From an uncultured Actinomycetota bacterium (GTDB taxonomy: Bacteria; Actinomycetota; Thermoleophilia; RBG-16-64-13): 64,000 nucleotides of DNA. The DNA lies in NCBI GenBank assembly GCA_963783835.1, contig CAWAOX010000014.1, positions 238,614 through 302,613 of the forward strand, written 5' to 3'. The position numbers and the translations under genes were made by a program. Positions 21,123 to 57,888 of this stretch are shown here, in pieces. How positions within the stretch are numbered: the stretch's first letter is position 1; every line of letters starts with the position of its first letter. The notes beneath the pieces were generated by a model, which did not search any database, was not told the DNA's origin, and saw nothing but the letters and a program-made list of their open reading frames with translations.

Positions 21123-22475
21123 TCACACTTTGGGCAGCTTCTTCATCGCCTCTTTGATCTTCTCTTCAGGATACGCGTAGTCCTCGAGCTTGCCGTCGAG
21201 GTAGTTATCGTAGGCCGCCATGTCGAAGTGGCCATGCCCGCTCATGTTGAAGAGAATGGTCTTCTCGTCGCCGGACTGCCTGCATTCGTCTGCGATCCGC
21301 CTGACGGCCGCGATAGCGTGCGAGCTCTCCGGGGCGGGGATGATGCCTTCCGACCGGGCGAACGAGACACCGGCAGAGAAGGCCTCGGTCTGAAGCACCG
21401 ACTGGGCCTCGACGAGACCGAGCTGGTGGCAATGCGAAACCATCGGAGCCATCCCGTGGTAGCGCAGGCCGCCTGCATGGATGCCGGGCGGGATGAAATC
21501 GTGGCCCAGCGTGTCCATCTTCAAGAGTGGGGTCAGCTTGGACGTGTCGCCGTAGTCGAAAGCGTAGACCCCCTTGGTCATGGAGGGGCAGGCCGCCGGT
21601 TCGACAGCGATGATCCTGGTCTTCTTGCCCTTCTTGATGTTCTCGCCCACGAACGGGAAACCGATGCCGGCGAAGTTGGAGCCGCCGCCGACGCACCCCA
21701 CGACGAAGTCGGGGTACGCGCCCGCCAACTCCATCTGCTCGAGGGCCTCCTGCCCGATGACCGTCTGATGGAGCAGAACGTGATTGAGTACCGAACCCAG
21801 CGAGTAGTGGGTGTCGTCGCGCTGGGCCGCGATTTCGACCGCTTCGCTGATGGCTATGCCCAGGCTACCGGGTGAATCCGGGTCCTCGGCCAGGATCCTG
21901 CGGCCCGATTCGGTGGTGTCGGAGGGGCTGGGGATGACTTCCGCGCCCCACACCCGGATCATGCTCCGGCGATACGGCTTCTGGAAGTAGGAGACCTTCA
22001 CCATGTAGACCAAGCACTCCATGCCGAACATCTGGCAGGCGAGGGCCAGCGCGCTGCCCCACTGCCCGGCGCCGGTCTCGGTGGTCAGCTTGGTGACGCC
22101 TTCCTGCTTGTTGTACCAGGCCTGCGCTACCGCCGTGTTGGGCTTGTGAGACCCGGCCGGGCTGACGCCCTCGTACTTGAAGTAGATCTTGGCTGGAGTG
22201 TCGAGCACTTTTTCCCATCGGGCGGCGCGGATGAGCGGGGTGGGCCGCCACAGCTTGTAGATCTCCCGGACCTCATCGGGGATCTCGATCAGGGGCTCCG
22301 TCGACATCTCCTGCATGATGAGACCCATCGGGAACAGCGGCGCGAGGTCATCTGGACCGGCGGGCTGCAGCGTTCCCGGGTGGAGGGGCGGGGGCGGGGG
22401 CGCGGGGAGATCGGCCGCGACGTTATACCACGACGTCGGTATCCGGTCTTCCGGGAGCAAGTACTTAGTCGCCAT
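21123..22475 (-). CDS. TrpB-like PLP-dependent enzyme (tryptophan synthase beta chain type 2)
   Basis: '[23 protein letters not shown]', '[16 protein letters not shown]', '[13 protein letters not shown]' are typical of TrpB2. Confidence 0.85.
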
Positions 22476-22612
22476 GCCTTTTGTGCCTTTCCATCCTTTT
22501 GAGGGCTAGAGAGAGGCCAAAGTAGCACAAAAGCCAGGAAACGTGCATGATTAGACGAGAAGGGGGTATTCTACCGTCGTTCTAGCATCGACCCAGGACT
22601 CCGGGAGGCGTT

Positions 22613-24106
22613 ATGGCCGATCTTCTCCGCTTGACGCCCGATACGCTGGAATTCGTCCTGCTCTCCTTCGAAGGACCCGACCAGTACGCCATGGCGGGCG
22701 GGCTCGGGGTGCGGATGAAGGAGTTGGCGCTCGAACTGGCCCGCCAGGGGTTCCAGACGCATCTCGTGTTCATCGGCGATCCGGATCTGCCCGCGCTCGA
22801 ATCGCCGGCTGAGAATCTCACGCTCCACCGCTGGGGCCAGTGGCTCTCGGCCCACTTCCGGGGCGGCGTCTACCAGGGAGAAGAGGCCAAGCTTATCGAC
22901 TGGAACGAGCAACTCCCCGGTTACGTCGTTTCCCGCCTGGTCAGACCCGCGGCGGTGGCGGGCCGTCTCACTGCGGTGCTGGCCGAGGAGTGGCACACCG
23001 CCTACTCCACCTGCCAGCTATCCGATCGCCTCTGGGCCGAAGGGCTTCGCGACAAGGCCATTCTTCTCTGGAACGCCAACAACGTGATGGGGTTCGATCG
23101 CATCAACTGGGGCCGCCTGGACTTCTGCTCGCAGATAACCACCGTCTCCCGCTACATGAAGCACGTGATGTGGGACCGGGCCGTGAATCCGCTTGTGATC
23201 CCCAACGGGATCCCGGGGGACAGGGTCAAGCGGGCCGACCCGGATCTGGTGGGCAGATTGAGAGCCGCCTTTGCCGGGCGGGAGCTCGTCTTCAAGATAG
23301 GGCGCTTCAGTCCCGACAAGCGCTGGCACATGGCCCTGGACGCGATGGTTGAGGAGAAGCGGGCGGGCCACGACGTCGCCACCGTGATACGCGGCGGGGT
23401 GGAGCCGCACGGGGCGGAAGTGCTCGCCGATGCCAAGGCCCGGGGCCTGCAGATCGTCGATGTCCGGCCCCCGCGCGACCCCCAGGAGGCCATCGAGGCG
23501 CTTGCCCAGACCCCGCGGGCGGACGTCTACAACATCGCCAGCTTCATGAGCGACGAACTGATATCCGTCTTCTACACGGGCGCCGACGCCGTCCTTGCCA
23601 ATTCGGGCCACGAGCCGTTCGGCCTGGTGGGACTGGAGGTCATGGCCGCCGGCGGCGTCACCTTCGTCGGCACTACCGGCGAGGACTACGCGGTGCCGTT
23701 CCTGAACTGCATCGCGCTCGACACCGACGACCCCACCGAGATCAACATCGGCCTCGACTTCCTGCGGAGGCACCCGGATATCGTCGAGCGCATGCGTGCC
23801 GACGCGCAGGAGACGGCCCAGAGTTTCAGCTGGAAGAACGTCGTGGAGGACAACCTGCTGGGCAAACTGCGCTATGTGGCCCTTCGCCAGCTTGTCACCC
23901 CGCCGGGCAACAGCGAGACTGCCGCGGGGCCGGCGGGGCCGGTGGAGGCGGCGCCCGAAGAGGCACCGGTCGCGGCGCCCACTCCCGCCCGAAAGACGAA
24001 GGCGCCGAAGCCAGAGGGGGGCGATTCGGTCGCCTATGGCGGCGGGTCGATGACCCGGCGCCCTTCCATCAAACCGCAGACATCGAAGACCGTAAGGACC
24101 GGTTAG
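22613..24106 (+). CDS. GT4-family glycosyltransferase (likely alpha-glucan/glycogen-type glucosyltransferase)
   Basis: N-domain 'GGLGVRMKELALELARQG'; C-domain 'ANSGHEPFGLVGLEVMAAGGVTFVGTTGEDYAVPF' (EX7E-like GT4 signature). Confidence 0.8.
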   Translation: MADLLRLTPDTLEFVLLSFEGPDQYAMAGGLGVRMKELALELARQGFQTHLVFIGDPDLPALESPAENLTLHRWGQWLSAHFRGGVYQGEEAKLIDWNEQLPGYVVSRLVRPAAVAGRLTAVLAEEWHTAYSTCQLSDRLWAEGLRDKAILLWNANNVMGFDRINWGRLDFCSQITTVSRYMKHVMWDRAVNPLVIPNGIPGDRVKRADPDLVGRLRAAFAGRELVFKIGRFSPDKRWHMALDAMVEEKRAGHDVATVIRGGVEPHGAEVLADAKARGLQIVDVRPPRDPQEAIEALAQTPRADVYNIASFMSDELISVFYTGADAVLANSGHEPFGLVGLEVMAAGGVTFVGTTGEDYAVPFLNCIALDTDDPTEINIGLDFLRRHPDIVERMRADAQETAQSFSWKNVVEDNLLGKLRYVALRQLVTPPGNSETAAGPAGPVEAAPEEAPVAAPTPARKTKAPKPEGGDSVAYGGGSMTRRPSIKPQTSKTVRTG

Positions 24107-24114
24107 GGGGACCC

Positions 24115-25326
24115 GTGGCCGAGAACCTCGTAACGTACTGCGTCGTGCATCAGCCGCGACGCATCAAGCTGCCCGCGCAGGTCATCCCGGCAGGCACGAA
24201 GCCGGAAGACATGGCGCCCTATCTGCTGGACGATGCCATGAATCGGCGCTACTTCGAGAAGGTGGCCCGCTGGTGCTACTACCCTGCCTGCCAGATGTTC
24301 CTGGACATGCTGGACGAGGGCTACAAGTTGGGCCTGGGGTTCTCTGTGAGCTTCCTGTGGCAGCTGAGCCGGTGGGACAGCCACTTGGCGGAGCGTTTCC
24401 GGCAGCTCGTGGCCCATCCCAACTGCGAGCTGGTCGGGGTCGAGCCCTACCACAGCTTCGCGTTTGCCATCGACATTGAGCTCTTCCGGACGGAGATGAA
24501 GCGCGGCAAGGACTTCGCCGAGGACTTCTTCGACAAAGAGATCCGGGTGACCGACACGACCGAGATGGTCATGAACAACGAGGTCTACTACGCGTTGCTG
24601 CAATCCGGCTATCGGGCCGGCATGCTCGACGGCCGCAAGTGGGTGCTCGGCTGGCGCGAGCCGACCCATCTCTACCGCTACGGAGGGCGCGACCTCGACC
24701 TCTTCTGCCGCCACCACGAACTCTCGGATGACGTCGGCTATCGCTTCAGCAACAAGACCTGGTCGGGATATCCCCTCCGCGCCGACGCCTACGCCGAGCA
24801 TCTGCGCAGCACCTGGGGCGACTTTGTCTTCATAGGGTGGGACTTCGAGACGTTCGGCGAGCATCACAGCATCGATACGGGCATCTTCGACTTCATGCGG
24901 GCGATGCCCGCCCAGCTCAAGCGGCAGGGCGTTCGCTGCCTCACACCCAGCGAAGCGGCCGATGAGTTCGGCAACGCGTCGCTGCCGGATCTGCCCCTGC
25001 CCGAGTTTGGCACCACCTGGGCCGGCTCCGGGGGAATGGAGTTCTTCCTGGGCAACGCCTCGCAGCAGGCGATCTTCAGGCTGATGCACTCGGTGCTCCA
25101 CAAGGCTCGTCTGACCGGTGACCCCACGTTGGTCGACCTCGCGCTCTGGCTGCTCCAGTCCGATAATCTGCACCTCATCCAGTGGGCGGGTCGCTCGGGC
25201 TCTGAAGCCGAGGTATCGGCATACTTCACACCGGACGAGTGGTGGGATCTTGGCCCGGACAGGATCCTCACCGAGCAGCAGCGTGTGTACACGAACTTCG
25301 TCCGGGCGATGGATGACCACGTCTGA
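24115..25326 (+). CDS. glycoside hydrolase family 57-like protein (short form)
   Basis: 'YCVVHQPRR' and 'WDFETFGEHH' resemble GH57 conserved regions; GTG start 9 nt after GT4 stop. Confidence 0.7.
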   Translation: MAENLVTYCVVHQPRRIKLPAQVIPAGTKPEDMAPYLLDDAMNRRYFEKVARWCYYPACQMFLDMLDEGYKLGLGFSVSFLWQLSRWDSHLAERFRQLVAHPNCELVGVEPYHSFAFAIDIELFRTEMKRGKDFAEDFFDKEIRVTDTTEMVMNNEVYYALLQSGYRAGMLDGRKWVLGWREPTHLYRYGGRDLDLFCRHHELSDDVGYRFSNKTWSGYPLRADAYAEHLRSTWGDFVFIGWDFETFGEHHSIDTGIFDFMRAMPAQLKRQGVRCLTPSEAADEFGNASLPDLPLPEFGTTWAGSGGMEFFLGNASQQAIFRLMHSVLHKARLTGDPTLVDLALWLLQSDNLHLIQWAGRSGSEAEVSAYFTPDEWWDLGPDRILTEQQRVYTNFVRAMDDHV

Positions 25327-27487
25327 GCCGATCCACGTAGCGTTCGTCTGGCACATGCACCAGCCGTATTACCGGTCCGCTCGGACCGGAGCTTTCCAGA
25401 TGCCCTGGGCCCGGCTCCATGCGCTGAAGGACTACCTCGACATGGTCGAGATCCTGGCCGACTATCCGACGATCCACCAGACCTTCAACCTCGTCCCTTC
25501 TCTCATCGAGCAACTGGAGGATTACGCGGCGGGCGGTGTGGCCGACGTGTACTGGGAGCACACGATGAAGCCGGCGACGGACCTCTCGCCGAGCGAACGG
25601 GCGTTCATCGTGGAGCGCATGTGCGAGCGTTCCGACCACCCCCGGGCCAAGTCTCACCCCCGCTACCTGGAACTCGCGAGGAAAAGGGAGTCGGAGGCAT
25701 GTCGGGGATGGGATGCGTGCGGCGGATCGTTCAGCGTCGACGAGCTTCGCGACCTCCAGATATGGTTCGATCTCGCCTGGTTCGACCCGACTCTGCTGGA
25801 AGCTCCGGCGCTCGCCCCCCTCGTCGAGCGCGGCCGGGACTACCGGGAAGAGGACAAGGTGACCCTCGCCCAGGTTGAGCGCGATATCCTGGCCGGAGTC
25901 ATCCCCGCGTACGGGGAGGCTGCGGCTCGGGGGCAGATCGAGCTGTCGACCTCTCCCTATTTTCATCCCATCCTCCCGCTACTCGCAAACAGCGACACGG
26001 CCCGCGTCGGCGCGGCCGACACGGTGTTGCCCCACCGGCGCTATGCCCACGCCGAGGATGCCTGGGAGCAGGTCCAGAGCGGCGCGGCCAAACACGAGCG
26101 GGTCTTCGGAACTCCACCCCGAGGGATGTGGTGCTCTGAGCAAGCGGTCGGAGAAGACGTGCTGCCGCTCTTGATGAGGGCCGGAATCGAGTGGACGATC
26201 AGCGACCAGACGGTCCTTTCCCGCTCGCTGTCGGGCAGTGCGGACCGCGGCGCTGCCGAACGCCTGGGAGAAGCCGGCCATGACCCCGCCTCCCCCTACG
26301 CGCCCTATCTGCTCCACCGGGAAGAGGGCGAAATGGCGATCGTCTTCCGCGATCATACCCTGTCGGACCTTATAGGCTTCGGCTACCAGAGTTGGGACTC
26401 GCGTGACGCCGCCCACGACCTGCTGGGTCGCATCCGCGCCATCGGGACGGTGGGCGCGCCGCTTGTCACCATCGCCCTCGACGGCGAGAACGCCTGGGAG
26501 CACTACCCGCACGACGGCCGGGACTTCCTTCGGTACCTTTACGAAGGCCTCGCGGCCGACCCGGCGATCCGCTGCGTGACGGTGTCCGAGTTCCTCGACC
26601 GGCATCCCGCCACCGAGAAGCTCGACTGGCTCCATACCGGCTCCTGGATAGGAGGCGATCTGCGGACCTGGAGCGGCGACCCCGGGCACAACACAGCCTG
26701 GGACCTCCTCCATGACGCGCGAGATCTCGCGGCCTCCCGCCGGCCGATGACCCGCGCGGAGGTGGACGGAGACCCGCTCGAAGCCGCCGAAGAGGCCTGG
26801 CGCCACATACTGATCGCCGAAGGAAGCGACTGGTTCTGGTGGTTCGGCGAGCATCACCACACCGAACTCGACCATGTGTGGGACCTGGAGTTCAGGCACC
26901 ACCTGCAGGAAGTCTACAGGTGTCTGGGGGAGCCCGTCCCCATCCGGCTTTATCTCCCCGTGCTGACTGAGGGCGCGACCACCCACCTGGCATCGCCGAC
27001 GGGGACGATCGAGCCGGTGATCGACGGCAGGCTGAGGAGCGAGGACGGCTGGGACGCCGCGGGGTCGCTGCCGCCGGATCACCCGTCGACCATGCAGCGG
27101 GCCGACGGGGCGCACATCGTCGAGGCGCGGTTTGGATGGGGGATTGAGCATCTCTATCTGCTGCTGATCCCTCGGGACGTGACGGACCTGGCGGGACTGG
27201 AACTGGAGTTGAGGGTCGGGCCTGCGGGAGACGAGGACCAGTCGGCGTTTCATATGACGCTCGCGGAGAATGGGCGGATGGAGGTAAGCTGCAGCCAGTG
27301 CGGACATCTGGCCGGTACTGCAAGAGGCGCATGGGGAGACGTGGTCGAGATCGCACTGCCCCTCGCCGTCCCCGCCCGGGCGGATGATGACCGGCTGGAT
27401 CTGGTTCTTCGCGCCGGGCGGCAAGGGATGACGGATCACGTGTTCCGCTCTGCCGGCCTGGCGTCTTTAGGAGAGGTTGAACCATGA
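25313..27487 (+). CDS. glycoside hydrolase family 57 enzyme (branching enzyme / alpha-amylase / glucanotransferase type) with C-terminal extension
   Basis: Signature 'VAFVWHMHQPYYR', 'GSDWFWWFGEHHH'; start placed at internal Met 'MTTSEPIHV', which overlaps the preceding gene's end by 14 nt. Confidence 0.8.
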   Translation: MTTSEPIHVAFVWHMHQPYYRSARTGAFQMPWARLHALKDYLDMVEILADYPTIHQTFNLVPSLIEQLEDYAAGGVADVYWEHTMKPATDLSPSERAFIVERMCERSDHPRAKSHPRYLELARKRESEACRGWDACGGSFSVDELRDLQIWFDLAWFDPTLLEAPALAPLVERGRDYREEDKVTLAQVERDILAGVIPAYGEAAARGQIELSTSPYFHPILPLLANSDTARVGAADTVLPHRRYAHAEDAWEQVQSGAAKHERVFGTPPRGMWCSEQAVGEDVLPLLMRAGIEWTISDQTVLSRSLSGSADRGAAERLGEAGHDPASPYAPYLLHREEGEMAIVFRDHTLSDLIGFGYQSWDSRDAAHDLLGRIRAIGTVGAPLVTIALDGENAWEHYPHDGRDFLRYLYEGLAADPAIRCVTVSEFLDRHPATEKLDWLHTGSWIGGDLRTWSGDPGHNTAWDLLHDARDLAASRRPMTRAEVDGDPLEAAEEAWRHILIAEGSDWFWWFGEHHHTELDHVWDLEFRHHLQEVYRCLGEPVPIRLYLPVLTEGATTHLASPTGTIEPVIDGRLRSEDGWDAAGSLPPDHPSTMQRADGAHIVEARFGWGIEHLYLLLIPRDVTDLAGLELELRVGPAGDEDQSAFHMTLAENGRMEVSCSQCGHLAGTARGAWGDVVEIALPLAVPARADDDRLDLVLRAGRQGMTDHVFRSAGLASLGEVEP

Positions 27488-28362
27488 AATCCCTGGATAT
27501 GATTACATTCCTTACCGATTTCGGCTGGTGCGGGGGGTACGTCGCGGCCTGCGAGGCCACCATCGCCCGCGTGAGCCCGAGCGCCCGGGTGCTGCACGTG
27601 TCGCACGAGGTGCCGATAGGCGACGTGGCGGCCGGAGCCCTTGTCCTGGCCAGGGTCGCCCCGCTGTGTCCCGAAGCGGTGCATCTAGGGGTCATCGACC
27701 CGGGCGTAGGCACTACGCGGCGTCCGGTCGCGCTTTCGGCCGCTCGCGGGGACATCCTGGTAGGACCCGACAACGGCCTTCTTATCGACGCAGCGGAAGC
27801 GCTCGGTGGCTTGAACCGAGCCTGGGCTCTTGACGTCGAGCGGGTCCGCATCCGTGCCGGTCTTCCGATGGAGGGGGTCTCGACCACTTTCCATGGGCGC
27901 GACCTGTTCGCGCCTGCTTCGGCGCTCCTGGCTGCCGGGGTAGATCCTGCCTCTCTCGGCCGGTCCGTGGATCTCGCCTCTCTGGTGCGGCTGGCCCCCA
28001 GTCCCGCCCAGGCGATCGGCGGCGGGGTATCCGCTCCCGTCATCGAGATCGACCGCTTCGGCAACGTCGGTCTCGGGCTGTCCTTTGCCGAACTCCCGGC
28101 CGGGCAAGGCGCAAACGCCGAGTTCCTCGTCGAGGTGGCCGGCGACGGTCTGCCCGAGTGGAGCGCCCGGATGGTGACCACCTACGGGGAGCTCTTCCCG
28201 GGCGAACTCGGCCTTATCAGGGACTCGTGGGGCCAGGCGGCTCTCGCCCTCAACGGTGCCAGCGCTTCCGAGTTCCTGGGCGTGAGGCGCGGCGTGACGG
28301 TCACGTTGACGCCCGCCACCGGCGGTAGAGCCGGCGGCGGGGCCGCGGAGGCGAAACGGTGA
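27484..28362 (+). CDS. SAM hydroxide adenosyltransferase (DUF62; fluorinase/chlorinase-like SAM hydrolase)
   Basis: 'ITFLTDFG...', 'VIDPGVGTTRRPVAL', 'LVGPDNGLL', 'FHGRDLFAPA' fit the DUF62 family; ATGA overlap with GH57 stop and GGAGAGG SD. Confidence 0.75.
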   Translation: MKSLDMITFLTDFGWCGGYVAACEATIARVSPSARVLHVSHEVPIGDVAAGALVLARVAPLCPEAVHLGVIDPGVGTTRRPVALSAARGDILVGPDNGLLIDAAEALGGLNRAWALDVERVRIRAGLPMEGVSTTFHGRDLFAPASALLAAGVDPASLGRSVDLASLVRLAPSPAQAIGGGVSAPVIEIDRFGNVGLGLSFAELPAGQGANAEFLVEVAGDGLPEWSARMVTTYGELFPGELGLIRDSWGQAALALNGASASEFLGVRRGVTVTLTPATGGRAGGGAAEAKR

Positions 28363-29627
28363 CGGGCAAACCAACACGGAGAAAGCCGAAGAACGGTCCG
28401 CCTGTATCACGACGCCGGGCTTCGGCAACCGGGTCGGCGGCCCACCCCCGGCGCTCGTCGACCTCGAGACCGCCGTCATCTCCGGGTCCATCGTCACCCC
28501 AGCGTCCGACACGTCGCGAGACCGCTACTCCACAAGCGCTGCTCGCCGCCTACCGTCCGGATCTCGCACAAGAGCTGGCGACCGCGGATGCGCCTTCGTT
28601 CCGGTACGCACAGGTGCTGGAGCACCTACTTCGCCATGCTGTAAGCCCATTCGCGGAGGCGAGCGTGCTGCCCGCGGACCTTCGGGGACGTCTGGACGCA
28701 TTGGGAGCCTCGGTCCTCTCCGTGGCGGCTACCCGAATAGGGACGGATGGTACGACCAAACTGCTACTCAGGGCCAGCGACGGATCTCACATCGAGTCGG
28801 TACTGATGCCCTACGGGCGCAGAGTGACGGTGTGCATCTCCAGCCAGGTCGGATGTGCCGTCGGCTGCGCGTTTTGCGCCACCGGCGCCATGGGATTCCG
28901 GCGCAATCTCTCGACGGCCGAGATCGTCGATCAAATGAGAGCGGCGGCGGGCGCCTCGGAGACAGGACAGCGGATCACCAACGTGGTCTACATGGGCATG
29001 GGTGAACCGTTGCTCAACCTGGGCACGGTCCTCGATTCCATCCGCGTGCTCACCTCCCCGCTTGGACTAGGCTTGGGGCATCGAGCTCTCTCGGTGTCCA
29101 CTGTCGGGATCCCAAGAGGCATATTGAGGCTGGGCCGCGCGGAGCCGCAGGTGAACCTCGCGATCTCGCTGCACGCCGCGGACGACGCGACCCGGGCGCT
29201 CCTTGTCCCCGAGGGTTACCGCCACCCACTCGCGGAGATTCTCGAGGCGGCCTGGGAGCACTTCGCGACCACAGGCCGTAAGCTTCTCGTAGAGTATGTC
29301 CTCCTCGCGGGGGTGAACGACTCGCTCGACGACGCGCGCCGCCTGGCGGCCCTTCTGCGGGGGCATGTCGTGGCGGTCAACCTCTTGAACTGGAACCCGG
29401 TCTGCCCAGAAGAGGTGGCGTCGGTCGCGGCCCCGGGGGGAACTGCGCGGAGGACGCCGGTGCGCAGTAGGCGCTTCTACCCTTCGTCACCCGCTGCGGT
29501 TGCCACGTTCCGCGCGGCTTTGCGGGCGGCCCATATCGAGACCGTCGTCAGGCAGAGCAAAGGAGCCGGCATCGAGGCGGCATGCGGTCAGCTGGCCGGC
29601 GCCGTCGGGTCGTACGAAAAGGATTAA
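28359..29627 (+). CDS. rlmN: 23S rRNA (adenine2503-C2)-methyltransferase RlmN-family radical SAM enzyme with ~55-aa R/S/P-rich N-terminal extension
   Basis: 'CISSQVGCAVGCAFCATGAMGFRRNLSTAEIVDQ' (CX3CX2C) and 'VYMGMGEPLLN'; GTG start overlaps DUF62 stop (GTGA); true start may lie downstream. Confidence 0.8.
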   Translation: MTGKPTRRKPKNGPPVSRRRASATGSAAHPRRSSTSRPPSSPGPSSPQRPTRRETATPQALLAAYRPDLAQELATADAPSFRYAQVLEHLLRHAVSPFAEASVLPADLRGRLDALGASVLSVAATRIGTDGTTKLLLRASDGSHIESVLMPYGRRVTVCISSQVGCAVGCAFCATGAMGFRRNLSTAEIVDQMRAAAGASETGQRITNVVYMGMGEPLLNLGTVLDSIRVLTSPLGLGLGHRALSVSTVGIPRGILRLGRAEPQVNLAISLHAADDATRALLVPEGYRHPLAEILEAAWEHFATTGRKLLVEYVLLAGVNDSLDDARRLAALLRGHVVAVNLLNWNPVCPEEVASVAAPGGTARRTPVRSRRFYPSSPAAVATFRAALRAAHIETVVRQSKGAGIEAACGQLAGAVGSYEKD

Positions 29628-29651
29628 GACGGCTTCTTTGCCGCGATGCCT

Positions 29652-29700
29652 GGCCATTGGGCCGTGCCGCCGAGATACCCGCCGGCGCCGCCCAATGGCC
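29652..29700. terminator. bidirectional terminator-like hairpin: perfect 11-bp inverted repeat GGCCATTGGGC/GCCCAATGGCC with 27-nt GC-rich loop
   Basis: Seen directly between convergent rlmN (ends 29627) and cobO (ends 29787). Confidence 0.45.
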
Positions 29701-29786
29701 GCCAGAGCCGTCGAGAGGGCCGCTAAGTCGCGCTATGGCATGATGGTATTGCCAAACGTCACGCCTCTCGTGGCGCATCACCCAAA

Positions 29787-30305
29787 TCAGTACTCGATTC
29801 CCTTCTTGGCCATGACTCCGTCATCAAAAGCGTGCTTCACGCTGCGCATTTCCGTCACGGTGTCGGCCGCGTCGATGAGCTCGGGGGCTGCGTCTCGCCC
29901 CGTGATGATGACGGACAGGCGGCTCGGCTTCGACCCGAGGAAGTCGAGTATCTCTTCAACAGAGACGTACCCCTCCGTGACCGCGTGATTCAGTTCATCC
30001 AGGATCAGAAGCTCATAGCGGTCGGAGGCCGCGAGCTCGCGGGAGAGTTCCCAGGCCTCGCGGGCAAGCGCCTGGGGTATCGACGGGTCATCGGCCAACC
30101 ACGTGAAGCCAGACCCGATCCGCCGCATCTCGATGTTCGGGCAATCCGCGAGTGCTACCGCTTCTCCGCAGCTCCAGGTGCCTTTGATGAACTGGACGAT
30201 CGCGACCTGTTGGCCGTGTCCAGACGCTCGTAATGCGGTGCCAAAAGCCGCCGTCGTCTTGCCTTTGCCATCCCCGGTGTTGACAATGATCCGCCCGTTG
30301 CTCAT
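29787..30305 (-). CDS. cobO: cob(I)yrinic acid a,c-diamide (corrinoid) adenosyltransferase
   Basis: 'IIVNTGDGKGKTTAAFGTALRASGHG...IVQFIKG', 'LILDELN' fit the CobO/BtuR family; start placed at internal Met 'MSNGRIIV' (30305) rather than ORF start 30404. Confidence 0.8.
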   Translation of the reverse strand: MSNGRIIVNTGDGKGKTTAAFGTALRASGHGQQVAIVQFIKGTWSCGEAVALADCPNIEMRRIGSGFTWLADDPSIPQALAREAWELSRELAASDRYELLILDELNHAVTEGYVSVEEILDFLGSKPSRLSVIITGRDAAPELIDAADTVTEMRSVKHAFDDGVMAKKGIEY

Positions 30306-30315
30306 CGTCTTCGAT

Positions 30316-30705
30316 CTATGGAACGCTCGGGGGCGGCTGCGGGGGAACCAACCGGCTGTTCGATAGTTGCCCGAGCAAGATGCCCACAGAGCCCGGTGCC
30401 GCAAGCAGCGCCAGCATCACGTCGGGGGTGAAGGGCGCAAAGACCACGGTGAGCCCTTCGAATTCGATGCTCATGGTGTCCAGAGAGCCGGCCTTCACCT
30501 GCTGCCCGAAGCGTTGTGCGCTCGCGACGGTGTCGATCGCCAGAGCGGCGATGCTCGCCACGTCCACTCCCTCGCGGGCCATGCTGCTGACGATCAGGCC
30601 TTGGTCCGACACCAGGAGGGCCGCCTCGATACCCGGGATGGCGAGATACCCTCCCAGTGCTTGCTTGAGCGGGTCCGTCCCCGCCTGCCGGTCGTCCCCA
30701 GTCAT
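30316..30705 (-). CDS. Roadblock/LC7 (MglB-like) domain protein
   Basis: 'GIEAALLVSDQGLIVSS...ASIAALAIDTVASAQRF...LDTMSIEFEGLTVVFAPF' matches the Roadblock/LC7 fold. Confidence 0.7.
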   Translation of the reverse strand: MTGDDRQAGTDPLKQALGGYLAIPGIEAALLVSDQGLIVSSMAREGVDVASIAALAIDTVASAQRFGQQVKAGSLDTMSIEFEGLTVVFAPFTPDVMLALLAAPGSVGILLGQLSNSRLVPPQPPPSVP

Positions 30706-31065
30706 TCAGCTCACCTCTTCGATGCCCGCTCTAAGAAGTTGCAGCCGTATCAGCTGCGCGGAACGCTCGGCTTCCGCTGCTTGACGATAACCTATCTGGA
30801 GTCCCTGCGCGAGCCCCGCAAGCTCGGATACGAACATCCCGGTGCGGGCGAGGGCTCGCTCCGGGTCCTGGCTGGGTGCAGTGGGCCCGGCAAACCCCGC
30901 AGACCCAGAATCCGCGCTCCCACGCAACTCTCCGTCCGGCCAACTGATGATCGTGTCGCCCGACAAGAAGAGACTGTTGGTCTCCGCCATGGTGAGGCCG
31001 ACCCTCACGGTCACCAGATGCTCACCCGCACCCGGATGAAGACTGTGGGTGACGGAGAAGCCCAA
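30706..31065 (-). CDS. hypothetical small protein packed between SIMPL and Roadblock genes
   Basis: ORF only; stop directly abuts Roadblock ATG; no recognisable motifs; start may instead be the internal Met at 30990. Confidence 0.4.
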   Translation of the reverse strand: MGFSVTHSLHPGAGEHLVTVRVGLTMAETNSLFLSGDTIISWPDGELRGSADSGSAGFAGPTAPSQDPERALARTGMFVSELAGLAQGLQIGYRQAAEAERSAQLIRLQLLRAGIEEVS

Positions 31066-34392: not shown

Positions 34393-36459
34393 TCAGCTGT
34401 CGGGAGCCGGGGTTCGGCCGGCAGCGGGGGCCCGGTCAGCAGCAGGGGCCCGGTCGGACAACGGTGCCGACCCGGCGGCCTGGGCCCCCTCGGGGTTCGG
34501 AGATTCCTCTCCCCGCCCGTCGTTCGGCTGGGACCGCAGGGACCGGTAGAGGTGCACCAGAAGGACGGATATATCAGCGGGAGAGACCCCGGGCACCCGC
34601 GAGGCTTGTCCCAGGGTCGCCGGCCGCAACCGGCTCAGCTTGTCCTTGGCTTCGTATGTCAACCCCTCGAGAGGCCAGTACTCGAAATCGTCCGGGACTG
34701 GAAGAGTCTCGGTGGCACGATGGCGTCGGATCTCGGCGAGTTGCCGGCGAATGTACCCCTCGTACCGCGCCTGGATGGCCAACTGCTCCACTACGTCTGA
34801 AGGAGCCGACGAGATGCGCGCGCGATCGTCGTCGGATAGCATCTGCAGCAGGTCCTCGAACGAGACCTGAGGCCGGCGCAGGAGCCTTCCCGCGGATTGC
34901 GACTCTTCCAGGCGGGTGGTGCCGAGAGACTCGAGCAGATTCTGGCTCTCCTCGCCGCCCCGCACCTGGATACTCTCCAGCAATTCCGTGTATTCCGCCA
35001 GCTTGCGCTGCTTCTCTTCTACCATCTCGAGCTGGCCCGGTGTCAGAAGACCGAGTTCGTAGCCGAGCGAGGCCAGGCGCTCCGCGGCGTTGTCGTGGCG
35101 CAAGATGAGCCGGTACTCGGCACGAGAAGTGAACATCCGGTAGGGCTCGTCCACTCCCTTTGTCACGAGATCATCGATCAACACGCCGATGTACGCCTGG
35201 TCCCGGCGAAGGACGAACGGGGCCTCTTCGCGCGCATGAAGGGCCGCATTGATGCCCGCCATCAGCCCCTGGGCCGCGGCTTCCTCGTAGCCCGACGTCC
35301 CGTTGAGTTGCCCCGCGCAGAACAGCCCGGCCACCGCCTTAGTCTGGAGCGCAAGAGTGAGTTGTTGCGGCGGAAGATAGTCATATTCCACTGCGTATCC
35401 AGGACGGACCAGACGGGCGTTTTCGAGACCAGGAGTCGCTTTGATGATCTTCTCCTGGACAAAGACGGGCAGACTGGTGGTGAGCCCTTGCAGATACATC
35501 TCCCGGGTCGTGATCCCCTCGGGCTCGACGAACACCGGGTGCTGGTCCTTTTCCGGGAAGTTGATCAACTTCCGGTCGATGGAGGGACAGTATCGTGGAC
35601 CTTTGCCGCTCACAGAGCCGGTGCGTAGCGGGCTGAGATGGAGATGTTTGGAAACCACTTCGTGCGTAGCCGCAGTCGTGTGGGTCAAAAAGCAGGGGAC
35701 CTGACGGCGCGGAGCCGGAGTCTCCCAGTGTGAGAAGGACAAGGCGACCGAATCTCCCTCCTGGAGAATCATCCGCTCAGCATTGATGGTCGTCCCATCG
35801 ATGCGCGGTGGCGTCGCCGACTGAAAACGATCCAACTCCAACCCTGCGGCAAGAAGGCTTTCGGACAGACGGAGAGCAGGTAGTTCCCCCACCCGCCCCG
35901 CGGCGAAACTGCGGTCCCCGATCACAATCTTGCCCCGGAGAAAGGTGCCCGTCGCGAGGACGAGTGAGCGGCACTTGAGGTGCCGGCCGTCGGCAAGCCC
36001 GACCGCTCTGATTGTTTCACGTGAAACATCAAGGGCGACTGCTTCTCCCTGAACGATGTCCAGATTGGCCGTTCTTGACAGGATCACCTTCATCCAGTCT
36101 TCGTACAAGCGCTTGTCGGCCTGAGCCCGAAGCGCCCGGACCGCGGGGCCCTTGGAGGTATTGAGCATCTTGAGTTGGATGAACGCGCGGTCCGTGTTGC
36201 GCCCTTGTTCGCCCCCCAGCGCGTCCACCTCGCGCGTAAGTTGCCCCTTACCGACGCCCCCGACGGCCGGATTGCACGGCATCAGCGCGATGTTGTCAAG
36301 GTGCAGCGTGACCATCGCGGTCCGGCAACCCATCCGGGCGGCTGCGAGAGCCGCCTCGCAGCCGGCGTGGCCGCCACCGATGACCACCACGTCGTACGAC
36401 CACGTGTCTTGCCTCGAACCCGGATGTCTTCTTGCCGCTACCGCGCTCACGCGCCGCAT
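34393..36459 (-). CDS. mnmG: tRNA uridine-5-carboxymethylaminomethyl modification enzyme MnmG (GidA) with S/P/A-rich C-terminal tail
   Basis: 'YDVVVIGGGHAGCEAALAAARMG', 'MPCNPAVGGVGKGQLTREVDALGG', 'GLFCAGQLNGTSGYEEAAAQGLMAGINAA'. Confidence 0.9.
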   Translation of the reverse strand: MRRVSAVAARRHPGSRQDTWSYDVVVIGGGHAGCEAALAAARMGCRTAMVTLHLDNIALMPCNPAVGGVGKGQLTREVDALGGEQGRNTDRAFIQLKMLNTSKGPAVRALRAQADKRLYEDWMKVILSRTANLDIVQGEAVALDVSRETIRAVGLADGRHLKCRSLVLATGTFLRGKIVIGDRSFAAGRVGELPALRLSESLLAAGLELDRFQSATPPRIDGTTINAERMILQEGDSVALSFSHWETPAPRRQVPCFLTHTTAATHEVVSKHLHLSPLRTGSVSGKGPRYCPSIDRKLINFPEKDQHPVFVEPEGITTREMYLQGLTTSLPVFVQEKIIKATPGLENARLVRPGYAVEYDYLPPQQLTLALQTKAVAGLFCAGQLNGTSGYEEAAAQGLMAGINAALHAREEAPFVLRRDQAYIGVLIDDLVTKGVDEPYRMFTSRAEYRLILRHDNAAERLASLGYELGLLTPGQLEMVEEKQRKLAEYTELLESIQVRGGEESQNLLESLGTTRLEESQSAGRLLRRPQVSFEDLLQMLSDDDRARISSAPSDVVEQLAIQARYEGYIRRQLAEIRRHRATETLPVPDDFEYWPLEGLTYEAKDKLSRLRPATLGQASRVPGVSPADISVLLVHLYRSLRSQPNDGRGEESPNPEGAQAAGSAPLSDRAPAADRAPAAGRTPAPDS

Positions 36460-37958
36460 CCTTGCTGGCGCTCGTCGGCACCTGGAGAGAGGTCAACCGC
36501 GGGCCACCCCAACGACCGCGCGATATCTCGCGCGGCCCGGACTCCCGACGAAAGGCTGGCTGCGTAGTCCTGGGCTCCCGCCGATCGCCCCACGACCCAG
36601 ACCGGCCCCGGCTCTCCGCCGCACACCATTCTGCCGGTGTCGCTGACTCCGACTACCGTCAGTCCTATGACAGTCGAGGGCATCCGGCTCGCGATCGGTC
36701 CCACGTCGCCATGCGCGACCGCAGCCATCTCGCCGGCAAACAAGCCCCCGGGAGCCAGGTACACCTCGGATGTCGCCGCCCCGTCAGGGGAGAGCGTGGG
36801 GAGTCTTGCCGGTTCCCCCTGCGCGCTGATGCCCGTCATCATCACCATTCGATCGACCCTGAGATCCGCCTGCCAGTGCGGAGCAGGGGGATAGTCGACC
36901 GGCCAGCAGTCCAGCCCTGACCCTGAGCCCGCCGGGAGGAGCGGCTCTTCCGACAGTATGGGAGAAGCGAGTTCGCCGAGGCCCTCATGGCTGGTGTCAA
37001 GTCCGCCGAGGCCTTCGTGGTTTCTCGCGACTTCGCTGCCGTCCGAATACGCGCTGTGCGCCTCGGAGCCCGGCGGACGCGGAGCCCGATGGTCGCCCCC
37101 GACACCGTCGTCAACCCGGCCCTGCGCCGCCGACCAGCCCTGGTCCGCCAACCAGCCCTGCGCCCTTGCGCTTCGCACGGAGGCGCGCGGCCCCACTTCC
37201 ATGGCCACTTCCCGGAACTCCGCTCCCAGCGTTTCGAGGGCAGCGCACAGTCCTGCCGACGCGGGCTCCCCGTAACGCCCCCGGTGCGCAGCATCGGTGC
37301 CCGCATTGATGGGGGCCCCAAGGCTCAGTCCGACGGCCACGACCGCGGCGTCCGCCTCGAATACTTCCCCGAATATAGTCTCCACCTGGACCCGCTGCTC
37401 GGGCGCGCCGCAGACCCGTCGCTCAGGCACGTCGGCCGCCTGCTCTGGCGTGCGTCCCGCAAGTCCCCCGTCTGACCGGGCAGCCGCCTTTTCAGGCAAC
37501 CCCCGCTCGGCACCGCTACCGCTGCCGACGAGACGAACATCGGTGACGAATCCTTGCCGGAACTCGAGCCGGGCAATGCCTTCCAGAGCTCTCTTCGTTT
37601 CGACGCTGATCTTGCGGCGGTCGATGTTGAGGATCGCCTCGCCGCTCGCAGGCTTCGTCGCAGCCTGGAGCCAGACGCTGCGCAGAGGTAGCGGCAACCC
37701 CCGCAGCGCCTCCTCGGCCCCCCGCCACCCTTCGCCGCTGCCGATCAGGTCAGGTCCGTAGGCAGGCAGCCCGACCCTATCCATCGCACTGTTCATGAGG
37801 GTGACGTGCAGCCCGGCCGAGGCAAGCGCGGCCGCGCACGCGCAGCCCGACACACCGGCGCCGACCACGATCACCGTGGGAGGGGCTCCCCGCCCCTCGG
37901 CCGCCCCTCGGGCGCCGGGCGCTACCTCCCCAACTCTGCCCTCGCTCAGACCGTCCAT
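36447..37958 (-). CDS. divergent FAD/NAD(P)-binding oxidoreductase with MnmG/TrmFO-like motifs, long low-complexity insertions
   Basis: 'TVIVVGAGVSGCACAAALASAGLHVTLMNS' Rossmann motif; C-terminal 'GLFAGEM...' and 'PVWVVGRSAGAQDYAASLSSGVRAARDIA' resemble the MnmG 'GLFxAGQxNGTxGYEEAAAQG' region; start abuts mnmE stop, end overlaps mnmG start. Confidence 0.55.
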   Translation of the reverse strand: MDGLSEGRVGEVAPGARGAAEGRGAPPTVIVVGAGVSGCACAAALASAGLHVTLMNSAMDRVGLPAYGPDLIGSGEGWRGAEEALRGLPLPLRSVWLQAATKPASGEAILNIDRRKISVETKRALEGIARLEFRQGFVTDVRLVGSGSGAERGLPEKAAARSDGGLAGRTPEQAADVPERRVCGAPEQRVQVETIFGEVFEADAAVVAVGLSLGAPINAGTDAAHRGRYGEPASAGLCAALETLGAEFREVAMEVGPRASVRSARAQGWLADQGWSAAQGRVDDGVGGDHRAPRPPGSEAHSAYSDGSEVARNHEGLGGLDTSHEGLGELASPILSEEPLLPAGSGSGLDCWPVDYPPAPHWQADLRVDRMVMMTGISAQGEPARLPTLSPDGAATSEVYLAPGGLFAGEMAAVAHGDVGPIASRMPSTVIGLTVVGVSDTGRMVCGGEPGPVWVVGRSAGAQDYAASLSSGVRAARDIARSLGWPAVDLSPGADERQQGCGA

Positions 37959-43438: not shown

Positions 43439-44113
43439 GTGGTCCCGCTGAACATCCCCCGCGACAGCGCTCGAGATGACTCGGCCGTCCCCCAACTCAT
43501 CGAGCACCTCACCGCTCGGTCCTACTCCCTGGCCAGGGAACAGGGAGGGGCCATCCCGATCGGCGTCTTTCGGGAACTGATCGAGAACCTCGTGCACGCC
43601 TCCTTCGCGGGCGCAGTCATAACCATCCTCGACGGCGGCAACACCGTGCGTATCAGCGACCAGGGGCCGGGCATACCCGACAAGGAAGCCGCGCGTCGGC
43701 CGGGATTCAGTTCGGCCGACGCAGAAGCCAAGCGGTTCATCCGAGGGGTGGGCTCCGGCTTCTCCGTCGTCAGGGAAACGCTGATCGGCCTCGGTGGATC
43801 TCTGGACATCGAGGACAACCTCGGCCGAGGCACGGTCGTCACCGCCCGTGTAGCACCGCCCGCCGAAACGCCTCTCACGCCGGCCCCTGCCCCGGCATAT
43901 AATCTCCCTGAGCGCCAGCTTAAGATTCTGTTGCTGACGGTCGAGCTCGCACCGGTCGGTCCGACCCGTATCGCCCAGGAACTGGGCGTGTCCACCTCGA
44001 CCGCTTATCGGGACCTGGTGTCGTTGGAGCAGGCGGGCTTTGTTGTCTGCCGGCCCAGCGGGCACCGCTCGGCGACAGACGAAGGACTGGCGTATCTCGA
44101 CGCTGTGCTGTGA
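43439..44113 (+). CDS. GHKL-type ATPase (histidine-kinase-like ATPase / anti-sigma-factor-like) fused to a C-terminal MarR/TrmB-like winged HTH
   Basis: N-box 'ELIENLVHAS', G1 'ISDQGPGIP', G2 'GVGSGFSVV', G3 'GGSLDIEDNLGRGTVVTARV'; C-terminal 'ERQLKILLLTVELAPVGPTRIAQELGVSTSTAYRDLVSLEQAGFVV'; GTG start. Confidence 0.7.
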   Translation: MVPLNIPRDSARDDSAVPQLIEHLTARSYSLAREQGGAIPIGVFRELIENLVHASFAGAVITILDGGNTVRISDQGPGIPDKEAARRPGFSSADAEAKRFIRGVGSGFSVVRETLIGLGGSLDIEDNLGRGTVVTARVAPPAETPLTPAPAPAYNLPERQLKILLLTVELAPVGPTRIAQELGVSTSTAYRDLVSLEQAGFVVCRPSGHRSATDEGLAYLDAVL

Positions 44114-44168
44114 TGGTCGCCCCGCTCTCCGGCCGAGGGGCGGCGCTGAAGGGACGTGGGGGACGATC

Positions 44169-49323: not shown

Positions 49324-51483
<2,160 letters not shown>

Positions 51484-51486
51484 GCC

Positions 51487-57698: not shown

Positions 57699-57775
57699 GG
57701 GCCTATAGCTCAGTTGGTTAGAGCGCATCCCTGATAAGGATGAGGTCAGTGGTTCGAATCCACTTAGGCCCACCA
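57699..57775 (+). tRNA. tRNA-Ile (anticodon GAT)
   Basis: GGGCCTATAGCTCAGTTGGTTAGAGCGCATCCCTGATAAGGATGAGGTCAGTGGTTCGAATCCACTTAGGCCCACCA; 7-bp acceptor stem, anticodon loop CTGATAA. Confidence 0.85.
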
Positions 57776-57812
57776 TGACTTCCCAGCGGCACATGCCGGT
57801 ATGTCTCCAGTG

Positions 57813-57888
57813 GGGGGATTAGCTCAGTTGGGAGAGCGCCGCCTTTGCACGGCGGAGGTCGCCGGTTCGACCCCGGTATCCTCCACCT
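57813..57888 (+). tRNA. tRNA-Ala (anticodon TGC) with G3:U70 identity pair
   Basis: GGGGGATTAGCTCAGTTGGGAGAGCGCCGCCTTTGCACGGCGGAGGTCGCCGGTTCGACCCCGGTATCCTCCACC; acceptor GGGGGAT/ATCCTCC with G3:U70. Confidence 0.85.

Follow-up and report, generated by a model that had tools for sequence, protein, structure and literature searches.

In the mycobacterial cluster for methylglucose lipopolysaccharide (MGLP), Rv3030-Rv3032, a GT4 glycosyltransferase (Rv3032) is encoded together with a SAM enzyme (Rv3030) and a protein resembling GH57 (Rv3031) (PMC4555173). Rv3031 is branching-enzyme-like, the SAM enzyme is an O-methyltransferase, and the neighbourhood includes an acyltransferase. GH57 and GT4 genes also occur in archaeal glycogen-type clusters (Chem Rev 2024, PMC11046441). 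The catalytic Glu/Asp dyad of AaApu from Aquifex aeolicus was defined in PMC12106739. Those DUF62 enzymes that have been characterised act as repair hydrolases specific for (R)-SAM (bioRxiv 10.1101/2025.08.29.672840; PMC12120602). The (R) epimer arises spontaneously and builds up on deletion of samh (bioRxiv 10.1101/2025.08.29.672840), and clearance of (R)-SAM as the sole physiological role of DUF62 is doubted in PMC12120602. RlmN of E. coli (3RFA) and of 6FZ6 is known as a dual-specificity C2-methyltransferase of 23S rRNA A2503 and tRNA A37.

We compared with these systems five consecutive genes in a window of 64,000 nucleotides (the whole stretch of DNA that was analysed). Reading of the sequence places all five ORFs on the + strand between 22613 and 29627, in the order GT4-GH57a-GH57b-DUF62-RlmN (Table 1). 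On balance we favour, with good but not full confidence, a single transcription unit made of two functionally separate parts that are neighbours in one actinobacterial lineage.

Table 1. Positions of the five genes and of the two flanking non-coding elements in the window.
Feature	Length	Position	Strand	Description
GT4	497 aa	22613..24106	+	GT4-type retaining GT-B glycosyltransferase; Pfam Glycos_transf_1, Glyco_transf_4
GH57a	403 aa	24115..25326	+	GH57 family, uncharacterised subfamily; Pfam GH57, E = 3e-43
GH57b	724 aa	25313..27487	+	Amylopullulanase-type GH57; Pfam GH57, E = 3.5e-61
DUF62	292 aa	27484..28362	+	SAM hydrolase (adenosine-forming); SAM_HAT_N + SAM_HAT_C
RlmN	422 aa	28359..29627	+	RlmN-family radical-SAM RNA methyltransferase; Pfam Radical_SAM, TIGR00048
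Upstream divergent intergenic region	137 nt	22476..22612		TrpB-like (-) to GT4 (+)
GC-rich hairpin		29652..29700		21-nt arms, 7-nt loop; between convergent RlmN and CobA

The original prediction of five linked + strand genes stands, as do its 14-nt overlap of GH57a and GH57b (GH57b ATG at 25313, GH57a stop at 25326) and the ATGA (27484-27487, GH57b/DUF62) and GTGA (28359-28362, DUF62/RlmN) junctions. But the GT4/GH57a spacing, given there as 9 nt, is 8 nt in the sequence (GT4 stop 24106, GH57a GTG 24115), and this is the largest gap within the unit. The tight coupling is real, with junctions of +8, -14, -4 and -4 nt. Junctions this tight are not unusual here: when genes are called crudely as the longest ORFs, same-strand neighbours overlap or touch in about 15 of 33 cases across the window. 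The upstream divergent region presumably holds the promoter and the 5′ leader of the unit; neither a sigma-70 consensus nor an Rfam family was found in it, and the GT4 ATG is preceded at 7 nt by a GGGAGG Shine-Dalgarno sequence. At the other end, the hairpin (an inverted repeat with 86% complementarity, in a region with a folding energy of -76 kcal/mol, z = -3.4 against shuffles) is a candidate terminator for the 3′ end of the unit. It was not called by the terminator scan, the T-run being absent, and the same scan detected nothing resembling a terminator at the junctions between the five genes. With one strand, short or negative spacing, no internal terminator and a strand switch at both ends, co-transcription of the five genes as one unit is probable as judged from sequence. 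The stop/start overlaps together with the Shine-Dalgarno sites before each start suggest that translation would be polycistronic and partly coupled.

The families originally assigned to the five proteins were borne out by Pfam and NCBIfam profile matches. GT4 matches Glycos_transf_1 (E = 1.7e-9) and Glyco_transf_4 (5.6e-7), is matched weakly by the GlgA, MshA and MSMEG_0565 models, and ends in a P/A/T/G-rich C-terminal tail of ~70 aa. GH57a scores 148.6 bits against Pfam GH57 (gathering cut-off 21.2) and belongs to a family of 907 representative clusters at E < 1e-3. Both catalytic carboxylates are retained in it. In the alignment of homologues, which spans the motifs HQPRR, VEPYH, DTTEM and GWDFETFGEHH, the putative nucleophile E150 is nearly invariant, while the putative acid/base D243, aligned with the Asp of the GH57b DGEN motif, is lost in two distant homologues. 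No sequence match in the PDB was found for GH57a, and no match to the curated GH57 branching-enzyme models. Its AF2 model is poor (pLDDT 56), yet GH57 structures come first among the structure matches. GH57b matches AaApu in the PDB (8zyi/9iht/9jlq, E ~2e-74), and its catalytic dyad is intact, E276 and D390 being aligned with AaApu E256 and D352. Its residues 7-531 align with AaApu (8ZYI/9IHT; PMC12106739), the Glu nucleophile, the Asp acid/base and all five conserved sequence regions being shared (HMHQP 14, GQIEL 207, WCSEQA 273, DGENAW 390 and AEGSDW 502). AaApu has only 477 aa, whereas GH57b adds internal insertions and a C-terminal extra domain of ~190 aa; also, the host of AaApu is a hyperthermophile and that of GH57b a soil-type actinobacterium.

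These three genes are found together elsewhere. A set of 62 metagenomic loci (L105-L166), assigned to Dormibacterota/Chloroflexota from the source protein names, carries GH57a at 58-63% identity, with GT4 directly 5′ of it wherever upstream DNA is present and a GH57b homologue usually after it. GT4 is directly 5′ of GH57a without exception in groups A and B of the loci compared, and one natural fusion protein of 876 aa (P0122) joins the two, with 47% identity to GT4 in its N-terminal half and 53% to GH57a. DUF62 and RlmN are absent from the flanks in all 62 loci. The GH57b of these loci forms one polypeptide with a GT5 starch/glycogen synthase (~1230 aa in L121, L125 and L139), and L121 continues with genes for an alpha-glucan phosphorylase and for a fusion of NTP-transferase and phosphoglucomutase. 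Since the trio occurs in 62 loci that lack DUF62 and RlmN, and GT4-GH57a is also naturally fused, GT4-GH57a-GH57b is, on this comparison of sequences, a self-standing, conserved alpha-glucan (glycogen-type) module. We propose that this first part of the unit would serve alpha-glucan synthesis and remodelling: GT4 would act as a retaining GT-B glucosyltransferase, GH57a with its two carboxylates would work together with it, and GH57b, being of amylopullulanase type, would cleave or rearrange alpha-1,4/alpha-1,6 glucans. The GT4-GH57a pair, uncharacterised so far, is a modest lead.

The second part, DUF62 and RlmN, would be SAM and RNA housekeeping. DUF62 matches SAM_HAT_N (E = 1e-40, 139.3 bits) and SAM_HAT_C (E = 1.6e-12, 48.0 bits), and its D72, R79 and H137 fall on D68, R75 and H127 of PH0463 in the alignment to 1wu8/2wr8. 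We take these PH0463 residues to be the Asp-Arg-His water-activating triad, after Deng et al. 2009. The assignment is at the family level, as the (R)-SAM hydrolase equivalog cut-offs are unreached (149.7 vs 350 for NF058624, 144.9 vs 470 for NF053629), and that of the fluorinase equivalog TIGR04507 likewise (47.4 bits vs 400). Most likely DUF62 would hydrolyse the inactive epimer of SAM, whose (R)-sulfonium arises spontaneously, to adenosine and methionine. The earlier label 'SAM-destroying' is outdated: characterised homologues remove the inactive epimer, so that expressing one along with a SAM user is no contradiction. In common with the characterised (R)-SAM hydrolases (PH0463; StDUF62; SaciSAMH/HvSAMH) the protein has both Pfam domains, a full-length alignment to PH0463 and the triad; in contrast to them it stays below the NCBIfam equivalog cut-offs and carries an extra Gly/Ala-rich C-terminus. 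The context also differs, as the Sulfolobus (R)-SAM hydrolase operon contains a triphosphate tunnel metalloenzyme and an NMN adenylyltransferase.

RlmN scores 289.9 bits against TIGR00048 (cut-off 290) in two stretches split by an insertion, and does not reach the Cfr models (241.8 vs 550 for TIGR04432, 238.4 vs 530 for NF000424); in the PDB it aligns with the RlmN 6fz6 (2e-67). It would methylate 23S rRNA A2503 and tRNA A37. The N-terminal RNA-binding domain (residues 58-120 align with the N-domain of 6fz6), the CxxxCxxC cluster (C166/C170/C173), the methyl-carrier/resolving cysteines (C159, C409) and the GxxxAACGQL motif are shared with known RlmN (3RFA; 6FZ6), whereas an insertion of ~20 aa near residues 350-372 and a basic disordered N-tail of 57 aa are not. 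This tail, predicted as an R/S/P-rich leader of ~55 aa, does exist as an open frame (encoded at 28359-28529; its residues 1-57 include 11 R, 11 P and 10 S; pI 12). GTG 28359 is the sole canonical in-frame start 5′ of the conserved N-domain, which a start at the next one (28614) would truncate. From sequence the tail seems to be translated, and its length in relatives ranges from ~9 to 180 residues.

The lineage relatives used for the neighbourhood comparison are uncultured MAGs labelled Thermoleophilia. The arrangement is kept among them: GT4-GH57a-GH57b is followed by RlmN (identity down to ~57%) in 18 of the 18 related loci readable that far, the 14-nt overlap is retained in 15 of 21 loci, and the GH57b/DUF62 ATGA overlap in 10 of 16. 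The kept ATGA overlaps and the constant position of RlmN are compatible with selection for co-expression, a point against the two-part reading. DUF62 is present in 16 of 19 related loci and missing in the other three (L088, L093, L097), where GH57b runs directly into RlmN; L088 still has a DUF62 C-terminal remnant of ~60 aa. RlmN is retained in all three. With these losses, DUF62 is a dispensable accessory gene of the block.

The losses also bear on the possibility that DUF62 and RlmN work as a pair, with co-translation of the hydrolase shielding RlmN, which uses two SAM per turnover, from inhibitory (R)-SAM, while the glucan genes merely share the promoter. The GTGA overlap, the GGAGG before the RlmN start, the RlmN frame opening at or beside the DUF62 stop in three close relatives (L081, L082, L084), and the (R)-SAM hydrolase activity and in vivo effect of homologues (bioRxiv 10.1101/2025.08.29.672840) would agree with it. 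But RlmN persists where DUF62 is deleted, in L093 it is coupled straight to GH57b, and neither RlmN nor GH57 homologues lie within 10 kb in any of 80 DUF62 loci of other genomes, so we consider the pairing unlikely.

The favoured reading, two separate parts, draws on the wider synteny. A block of 16 kb is conserved in all lineage loci long enough to show it: 2-Hacid_dh-DUF72-TrpB-like, the five genes, and CobA-Robl-hyp-SIMPL-ParB-ParA-RsmG, from which CobA, SIMPL and DUF62 are occasionally missing. The block is origin-proximal, ~14 kb from dnaA. Because the whole of it is syntenic, conservation of the five-gene string alone is no sign of shared function, and the linkage of the two parts would reflect conserved origin-proximal synteny rather than a shared pathway or biochemical link. 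Adaptive co-expression with no shared chemistry would explain the same junctions, kept across the lineage with DUF62 identity down to ~56%; the remainder we infer, namely that cells growing slowly or lying dormant, in which growth no longer dilutes (R)-SAM, induce ribosome/tRNA methylation and the clearing of aged SAM along with the turnover of storage glucan. That (R)-SAM forms spontaneously, and accumulates after samh deletion, fits this account (bioRxiv 10.1101/2025.08.29.672840). Yet the synteny makes special selection unneeded, DUF62 is dispensable, and the AT-rich gap of ~130 nt before RlmN in L097 suggests a separate promoter there; on these grounds we find it distinctly improbable. There is a still slimmer chance that GT4-GH57a makes an undescribed alpha-glucan or glucoside, with expression translationally tied to (R)-SAM clearance and ribosome/tRNA methylation in this Thermoleophilia-like lineage. 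If true, the turnover of carbon reserves and SAM quality control would be linked in a dormancy-type 'storage plus maintenance' operon.

The original prediction had also likened the GT4 and the two GH57 proteins to MGLP-type clusters, with DUF62 in the slot of the methyltransferase. In that case the product of the GT4/GH57 proteins would be an alpha-1,4-glucan of a modified, methylated type, and the SAM-related genes would be part of its pathway. The likeness is that GT4, GH57 and SAM-related genes share one directon here and are joined in the mycobacterial cluster too (PMC4555173). However, DUF62 keeps a hydrolase triad, with no methyl group transferred, and neither the five genes nor those directly beside them encode a methyltransferase-fold protein, the sole methylase being the radical-SAM RlmN. 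Profile matches gave no Rv3034c-like acyltransferase in the five genes or flanks (TrpB-like, DUF72 and 2-Hacid_dh on one side; CobA, Roadblock and SIMPL on the other). The GH57 proteins are not of branching-enzyme type (GH57b scores 28.2 bits vs a cut-off of 920 for NF041566 and 27.0 vs 1000 for NF041133), and GT4 gives 19.6 bits vs 302.4 for TIGR02149, a GlgM/Corynebacterium-type GT4 model that is a proxy and not Rv3032 itself. The same trio also sits in another phylum's plain glycogen-type cluster, beside GT5 glycogen synthase, phosphorylase and PGM with no SAM-related gene, and three relatives have lost DUF62. We thus give an MGLP-like pathway hardly any credence. Compared as a whole with the MGLP cluster (PMC4555173), the unit likewise groups a GT4 with a SAM-using enzyme and a protein of the GH57 family, but its GH57 proteins are amylopullulanase-like and amylase-like, and its SAM genes encode a hydrolase and an RNA methyltransferase. 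With the glycogen-type clusters (PMC11046441; L105-L166) it shares a GT4 nested with GH57 amylase-type genes, and its GT4-GH57a-GH57b order recurs in the Dormibacterota-type loci, with junctions just as tight. It differs from them in that GH57b is unfused to GT5, and in place of a GT5 synthase, a phosphorylase and a nucleotidyltransferase/PGM it has two appended SAM-related genes. The pairing of glucan and SAM genes is an ordinary, lineage-specific neighbourhood and not a new SAM-glycan pathway.

Five plus-strand ORFs lie between 22613 and 29627 in the high-GC window (GC ~65%), and the tight run of the original prediction, with its protein families and its short or overlapping junctions, was found throughout in the sequence. 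In gene order, the first junction is a gap of 8 nt and the second an overlap of 14 nt, followed by ATGA and GTGA, so that the last three stand as predicted and only the GT4/GH57a gap had to be corrected, from 9 nt. A purine-rich Shine-Dalgarno-like motif precedes every start (GGGAGG for GT4, AGGAGAGG for DUF62 and GGAGG for RlmN). The unit is bounded at its 5′ end by a divergent intergenic region of 137 nt and at its 3′ end by a GC-rich hairpin with 21-bp arms (29.65-29.70 kb), placed between RlmN and the convergent corrinoid adenosyltransferase (CobA) gene, and a terminator scan gave no terminator-like sites at the internal junctions. A sigma-70 promoter scan of 22000-30500, uninformative for a high-GC actinobacterium, returned no match. 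From its sequence layout the run is probably one transcription unit; it may be noted that ~15 of the 33 co-directional neighbour pairs in the window also overlap or abut (crude gene call).

Positions of the features discussed, in the window unless a comparison locus (L-number) is named
Feature	Position	Strand	Description
GT4	22613-24106	+	GT-B glycosyltransferase, GT4 type; Pfam Glycos_transf_1 1.7e-9, Glyco_transf_4 5.6e-7
GT4 C-terminal tail	23891-24103		~70 residues, P/A/T/G-rich, low complexity, pI 9.7
GH57a	24115-25326	+	403 aa; Pfam GH57 3e-43
GH57b	25313-27487	+	724 aa; Pfam GH57 3.5e-61
DUF62 SAM hydroxide adenosyltransferase	27484-28362	+	Pfam SAM_HAT_N 1e-40, SAM_HAT_C 1.6e-12
RlmN-family radical-SAM enzyme	28359-29627	+	NCBIfam TIGR00048 289.9 bits vs cut-off 290
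Roadblock/LC7-domain gene and adjacent gene	30316-31065		adjacent gene 119 aa, without Pfam family
Chromosomal replication-origin region	32001-54078		
parB, parA, rsmG, mnmG, second GIDA-family gene, mnmE, yidC	36447-37958 (second GIDA-family gene)	-	origin region
dnaA, dnaN, recF, gyrB, gyrA	44040-45623 (dnaA)	+	origin region
tRNA-Ile(GAT) and tRNA-Ala(TGC)	57699-57887		separated by 38 nt
GH57b-GT5 starch/glycogen synthase fusion	L121 11216-14899; L125 12441-16145; L139 11955-15656		~1230 aa; three independent contigs
Alpha-glucan phosphorylase	L121 14992-17049	-	after GH57b-GT5 fusion
NTP-transferase (nucleotidyltransferase)/phosphoglucomutase fusion	L121 17084-19609		after phosphorylase
DUF62 C-terminal remnant	L088 13301-13483		~60 residues, between GH57b and RlmN; E = 2e-10
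RlmN N-terminal tail	L093 4186-4731		~180 residues

The neighbourhood comparison showed that relatives keep the arrangement. All of six contigs having a DUF62 at 60-83% identity to that of the window (one labelled Thermoleophilia bacterium) carry the order TrpB-like(-) / GT4-GH57a-GH57b-DUF62-RlmN / CobA-Roadblock-hyp-SIMPL-ParB-ParA-RsmG-MnmG-MnmE, and a metagenome scan with the GH57a alignment as seed yielded 18 more same-lineage loci (GH57a 76-84% identity). With the window counted, RlmN lies 3′ of the glucan genes in 18 of the 18 lineage loci readable that far, and DUF62 is present in 16 of 19; CobA and SIMPL, as DUF62, are absent here and there. The GH57a/GH57b 14-nt overlap is kept in 15 of 21 lineage loci and the GH57b/DUF62 ATGA in 10 of 16, gene starts in metagenomic loci being approximate. 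The synteny extends over a 16-kb neighbourhood in every lineage locus of sufficient length, taking in the unrelated upstream 2-hydroxyacid dehydrogenase, DUF72 and TrpB-like genes and the downstream par/rsmG genes. Therefore, conservation of the five-gene string is indistinguishable from general origin-proximal synteny.

With dnaA ~14 kb to its right, the unit faces that gene and would be head-on to replication provided that oriC adjoins dnaA. Beside CobA in all relatives stand the Roadblock/LC7-domain gene and its 119-aa neighbour. The window also holds a tRNA-Ile/tRNA-Ala pair, the usual occupant of rRNA spacers; no rRNA genes were detected across the window, and a stand-alone pair of this kind 3′ of gyrA is known in mycobacteria. 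The AT skew rises to ~+0.16 over gyrB/gyrA (50001-54000), far above the rest of the window, and is probably a gene-composition bias.

Outside the lineage, 62 loci with source names Candidatus Dormibacterota/Chloroflexota (GH57a 58-63% identity) have GT4 directly upstream of GH57a and usually a GH57b homologue downstream, and in 0 of the 62 does DUF62 or RlmN follow this triad. A DUF62-alignment scan of genome contigs, used as a negative control for linkage, gave only distant loci among the matches listed. These include 80 DUF62 loci of other genomes (33-49% identity to the window DUF62), mostly Actinomycetota (including Rubrobacter and a Gaiellaceae MAG) together with Chloroflexota, archaea and others, and no homologue of GH57 or RlmN lies within 10 kb of any of the 80 listed. 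The triad is therefore evolutionarily independent of the two SAM genes. Its own associations are with glucan enzymes, namely the GH57b-GT5 fusions and the L121 neighbours of the table, and P0122, a representative protein of 876 aa, is a natural GT4-GH57a fusion, sharing 47% identity with the window GT4 in its N-terminal half and 53% with GH57a in its C-terminal half. An artefact of assembly or gene calling is conceivable for P0122, although both halves align full-length. As a Rosetta-stone protein it supports GT4 and GH57a acting together, and jointly with the GH57b-GT5 fusion it supports a functional link across the triad. The Dormibacterota-type loci, both fusions and the L121 neighbours therefore place the triad in alpha-glucan (glycogen-type) metabolism. 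The low-complexity tail of the window GT4 is alignable in relatives and has the same position as the linker of the GT4-GH57a fusion protein. In archaeal glycogen loci a GT4 is similarly nested among GH57 genes, with its role left open (PMC11046441); literature searches gave no earlier description of the triad or of the five-gene string.

Among the triad proteins, GH57b matches the Aquifex aeolicus amylopullulanase AaApu, for which there is a crystal structure, over >500 aligned residues (E ~2e-74), and keeps all five GH57 signature regions with the Glu nucleophile E276 and the Asp acid/base D390; against curated GH57 branching-enzyme models it scores just 27-28 bits (cut-offs 920-1000). GH57a belongs to a small family (907 of 1.84 billion representative clusters at E < 1e-3) with the conserved motifs HQPRR, VEPYH, DTTEM and GWDFETFGEHH and catalytic positions E150 and D243. 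A sequence search of the PDB gave no relative of GH57a, and its AlphaFold2 model, built on a shallow 16-sequence alignment, is poor (pLDDT 55.7); in Foldseek the GH57 structures 5wu7 and 1k1x rank first (TM ~0.4), so that the model weakly suggests a GH57 fold. GT4 shows weak matches to the GT4/GT5 enzymes GlgA, MshA and MSMEG_0565.

An alignment with Pyrococcus PH0463 spans the whole of DUF62 and sets its D72, R79 and H137 on the water-activating triad D68/R75/H127; the protein falls far under the fluorinase model score (NCBIfam). A SAM-destroying enzyme co-translated with a glycan pathway and a radical-SAM methyltransferase had been regarded as an unusual combination. Characterised DUF62 enzymes have the inactive (R)-sulfonium SAM epimer as their only substrate and reduce the (R)-epimer share in vivo (bioRxiv 10.1101/2025.08.29.672840; PMC12120602), and for this reason a DUF62 adjoining a SAM consumer is not contradictory. 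In three same-lineage relatives (L088, L093 and L097) GH57b is directly followed by RlmN without DUF62; the C-terminal remnant that persists in L088 shows the gene to have been deleted there. DUF62 and RlmN might alternatively be a functional pair, for which we found no specific support.

RlmN has the N-terminal accessory domain, the CxxxCxxC cluster (C166/C170/C173) and the catalytic cysteines C159 and C409; its nearest PDB structure is an RlmN (6fz6), with Cfr ranking behind, and it scores ~240 bits against the NCBIfam Cfr models (cut-offs 530-550). No second RlmN was found in the 64-kb window. The R/S/P-rich leader of RlmN has a GC3 of 0.59 as against ~0.8 in neighbour genes, and it was considered whether it is non-coding. 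This was rejected as the main reading: GTG 28359 is the sole canonical in-frame start 5′ of the conserved N-domain, the two closest relatives differ from the leader by indels of 21 and 9 nt, and substitutions by codon position 1/2/3 number 16/5/22. Because the frame is, in addition, open from the DUF62 stop onward in all relatives examined, the leader is most likely translated, a non-canonical start being possible. Its length across relatives runs from ~9 residues (L097) to ~180 (L093). This basic, disordered tail (pI 12) is specific to the lineage and of a kind often present on actinobacterial nucleic-acid-binding proteins. The L093 tail has K/P/G-rich repeats (PGTQKPGPQKPGPPKRG...) and begins ~8-10 nt past the GH57b stop.

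The most economical reading is one probable transcription unit of two parts, a glucan module and two housekeeping genes, the latter being a putative dispensable (R)-SAM repair hydrolase (DUF62) and RlmN; the parts are held together by lineage-wide synteny beside the replication origin. Adaptive 'storage plus maintenance' co-regulation of the unit, as another explanation, likewise has no specific support. The supposedly unusual combination resolves into this conserved glycogen-type module and two housekeeping genes. The question as posed is of little importance, but two by-products are of modest value. One is a worked case that stop/start overlaps and single-lineage conservation do not prove a shared pathway; the other is the triad common to Thermoleophilia-like Actinomycetota and Dormibacterota, a so far uncharacterised part of how abundant soil bacteria metabolise alpha-glucans, of which the GT4-GH57a pair, itself uncharacterised, is the sole part deserving follow-up. 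The analogy drawn earlier with the mycobacterial methylglucose lipopolysaccharide (MGLP) cluster Rv3030-Rv3032 fails on each tested feature: unlike that cluster, the unit and its flanks have no O-methyltransferase, acyltransferase or branching-type GH57, and GT4 shows no relationship to the GlgM-type model. The five-gene run exists, but there is nothing out of the ordinary in it: its genes and clusters are of known kinds, in an arrangement specific to the lineage.
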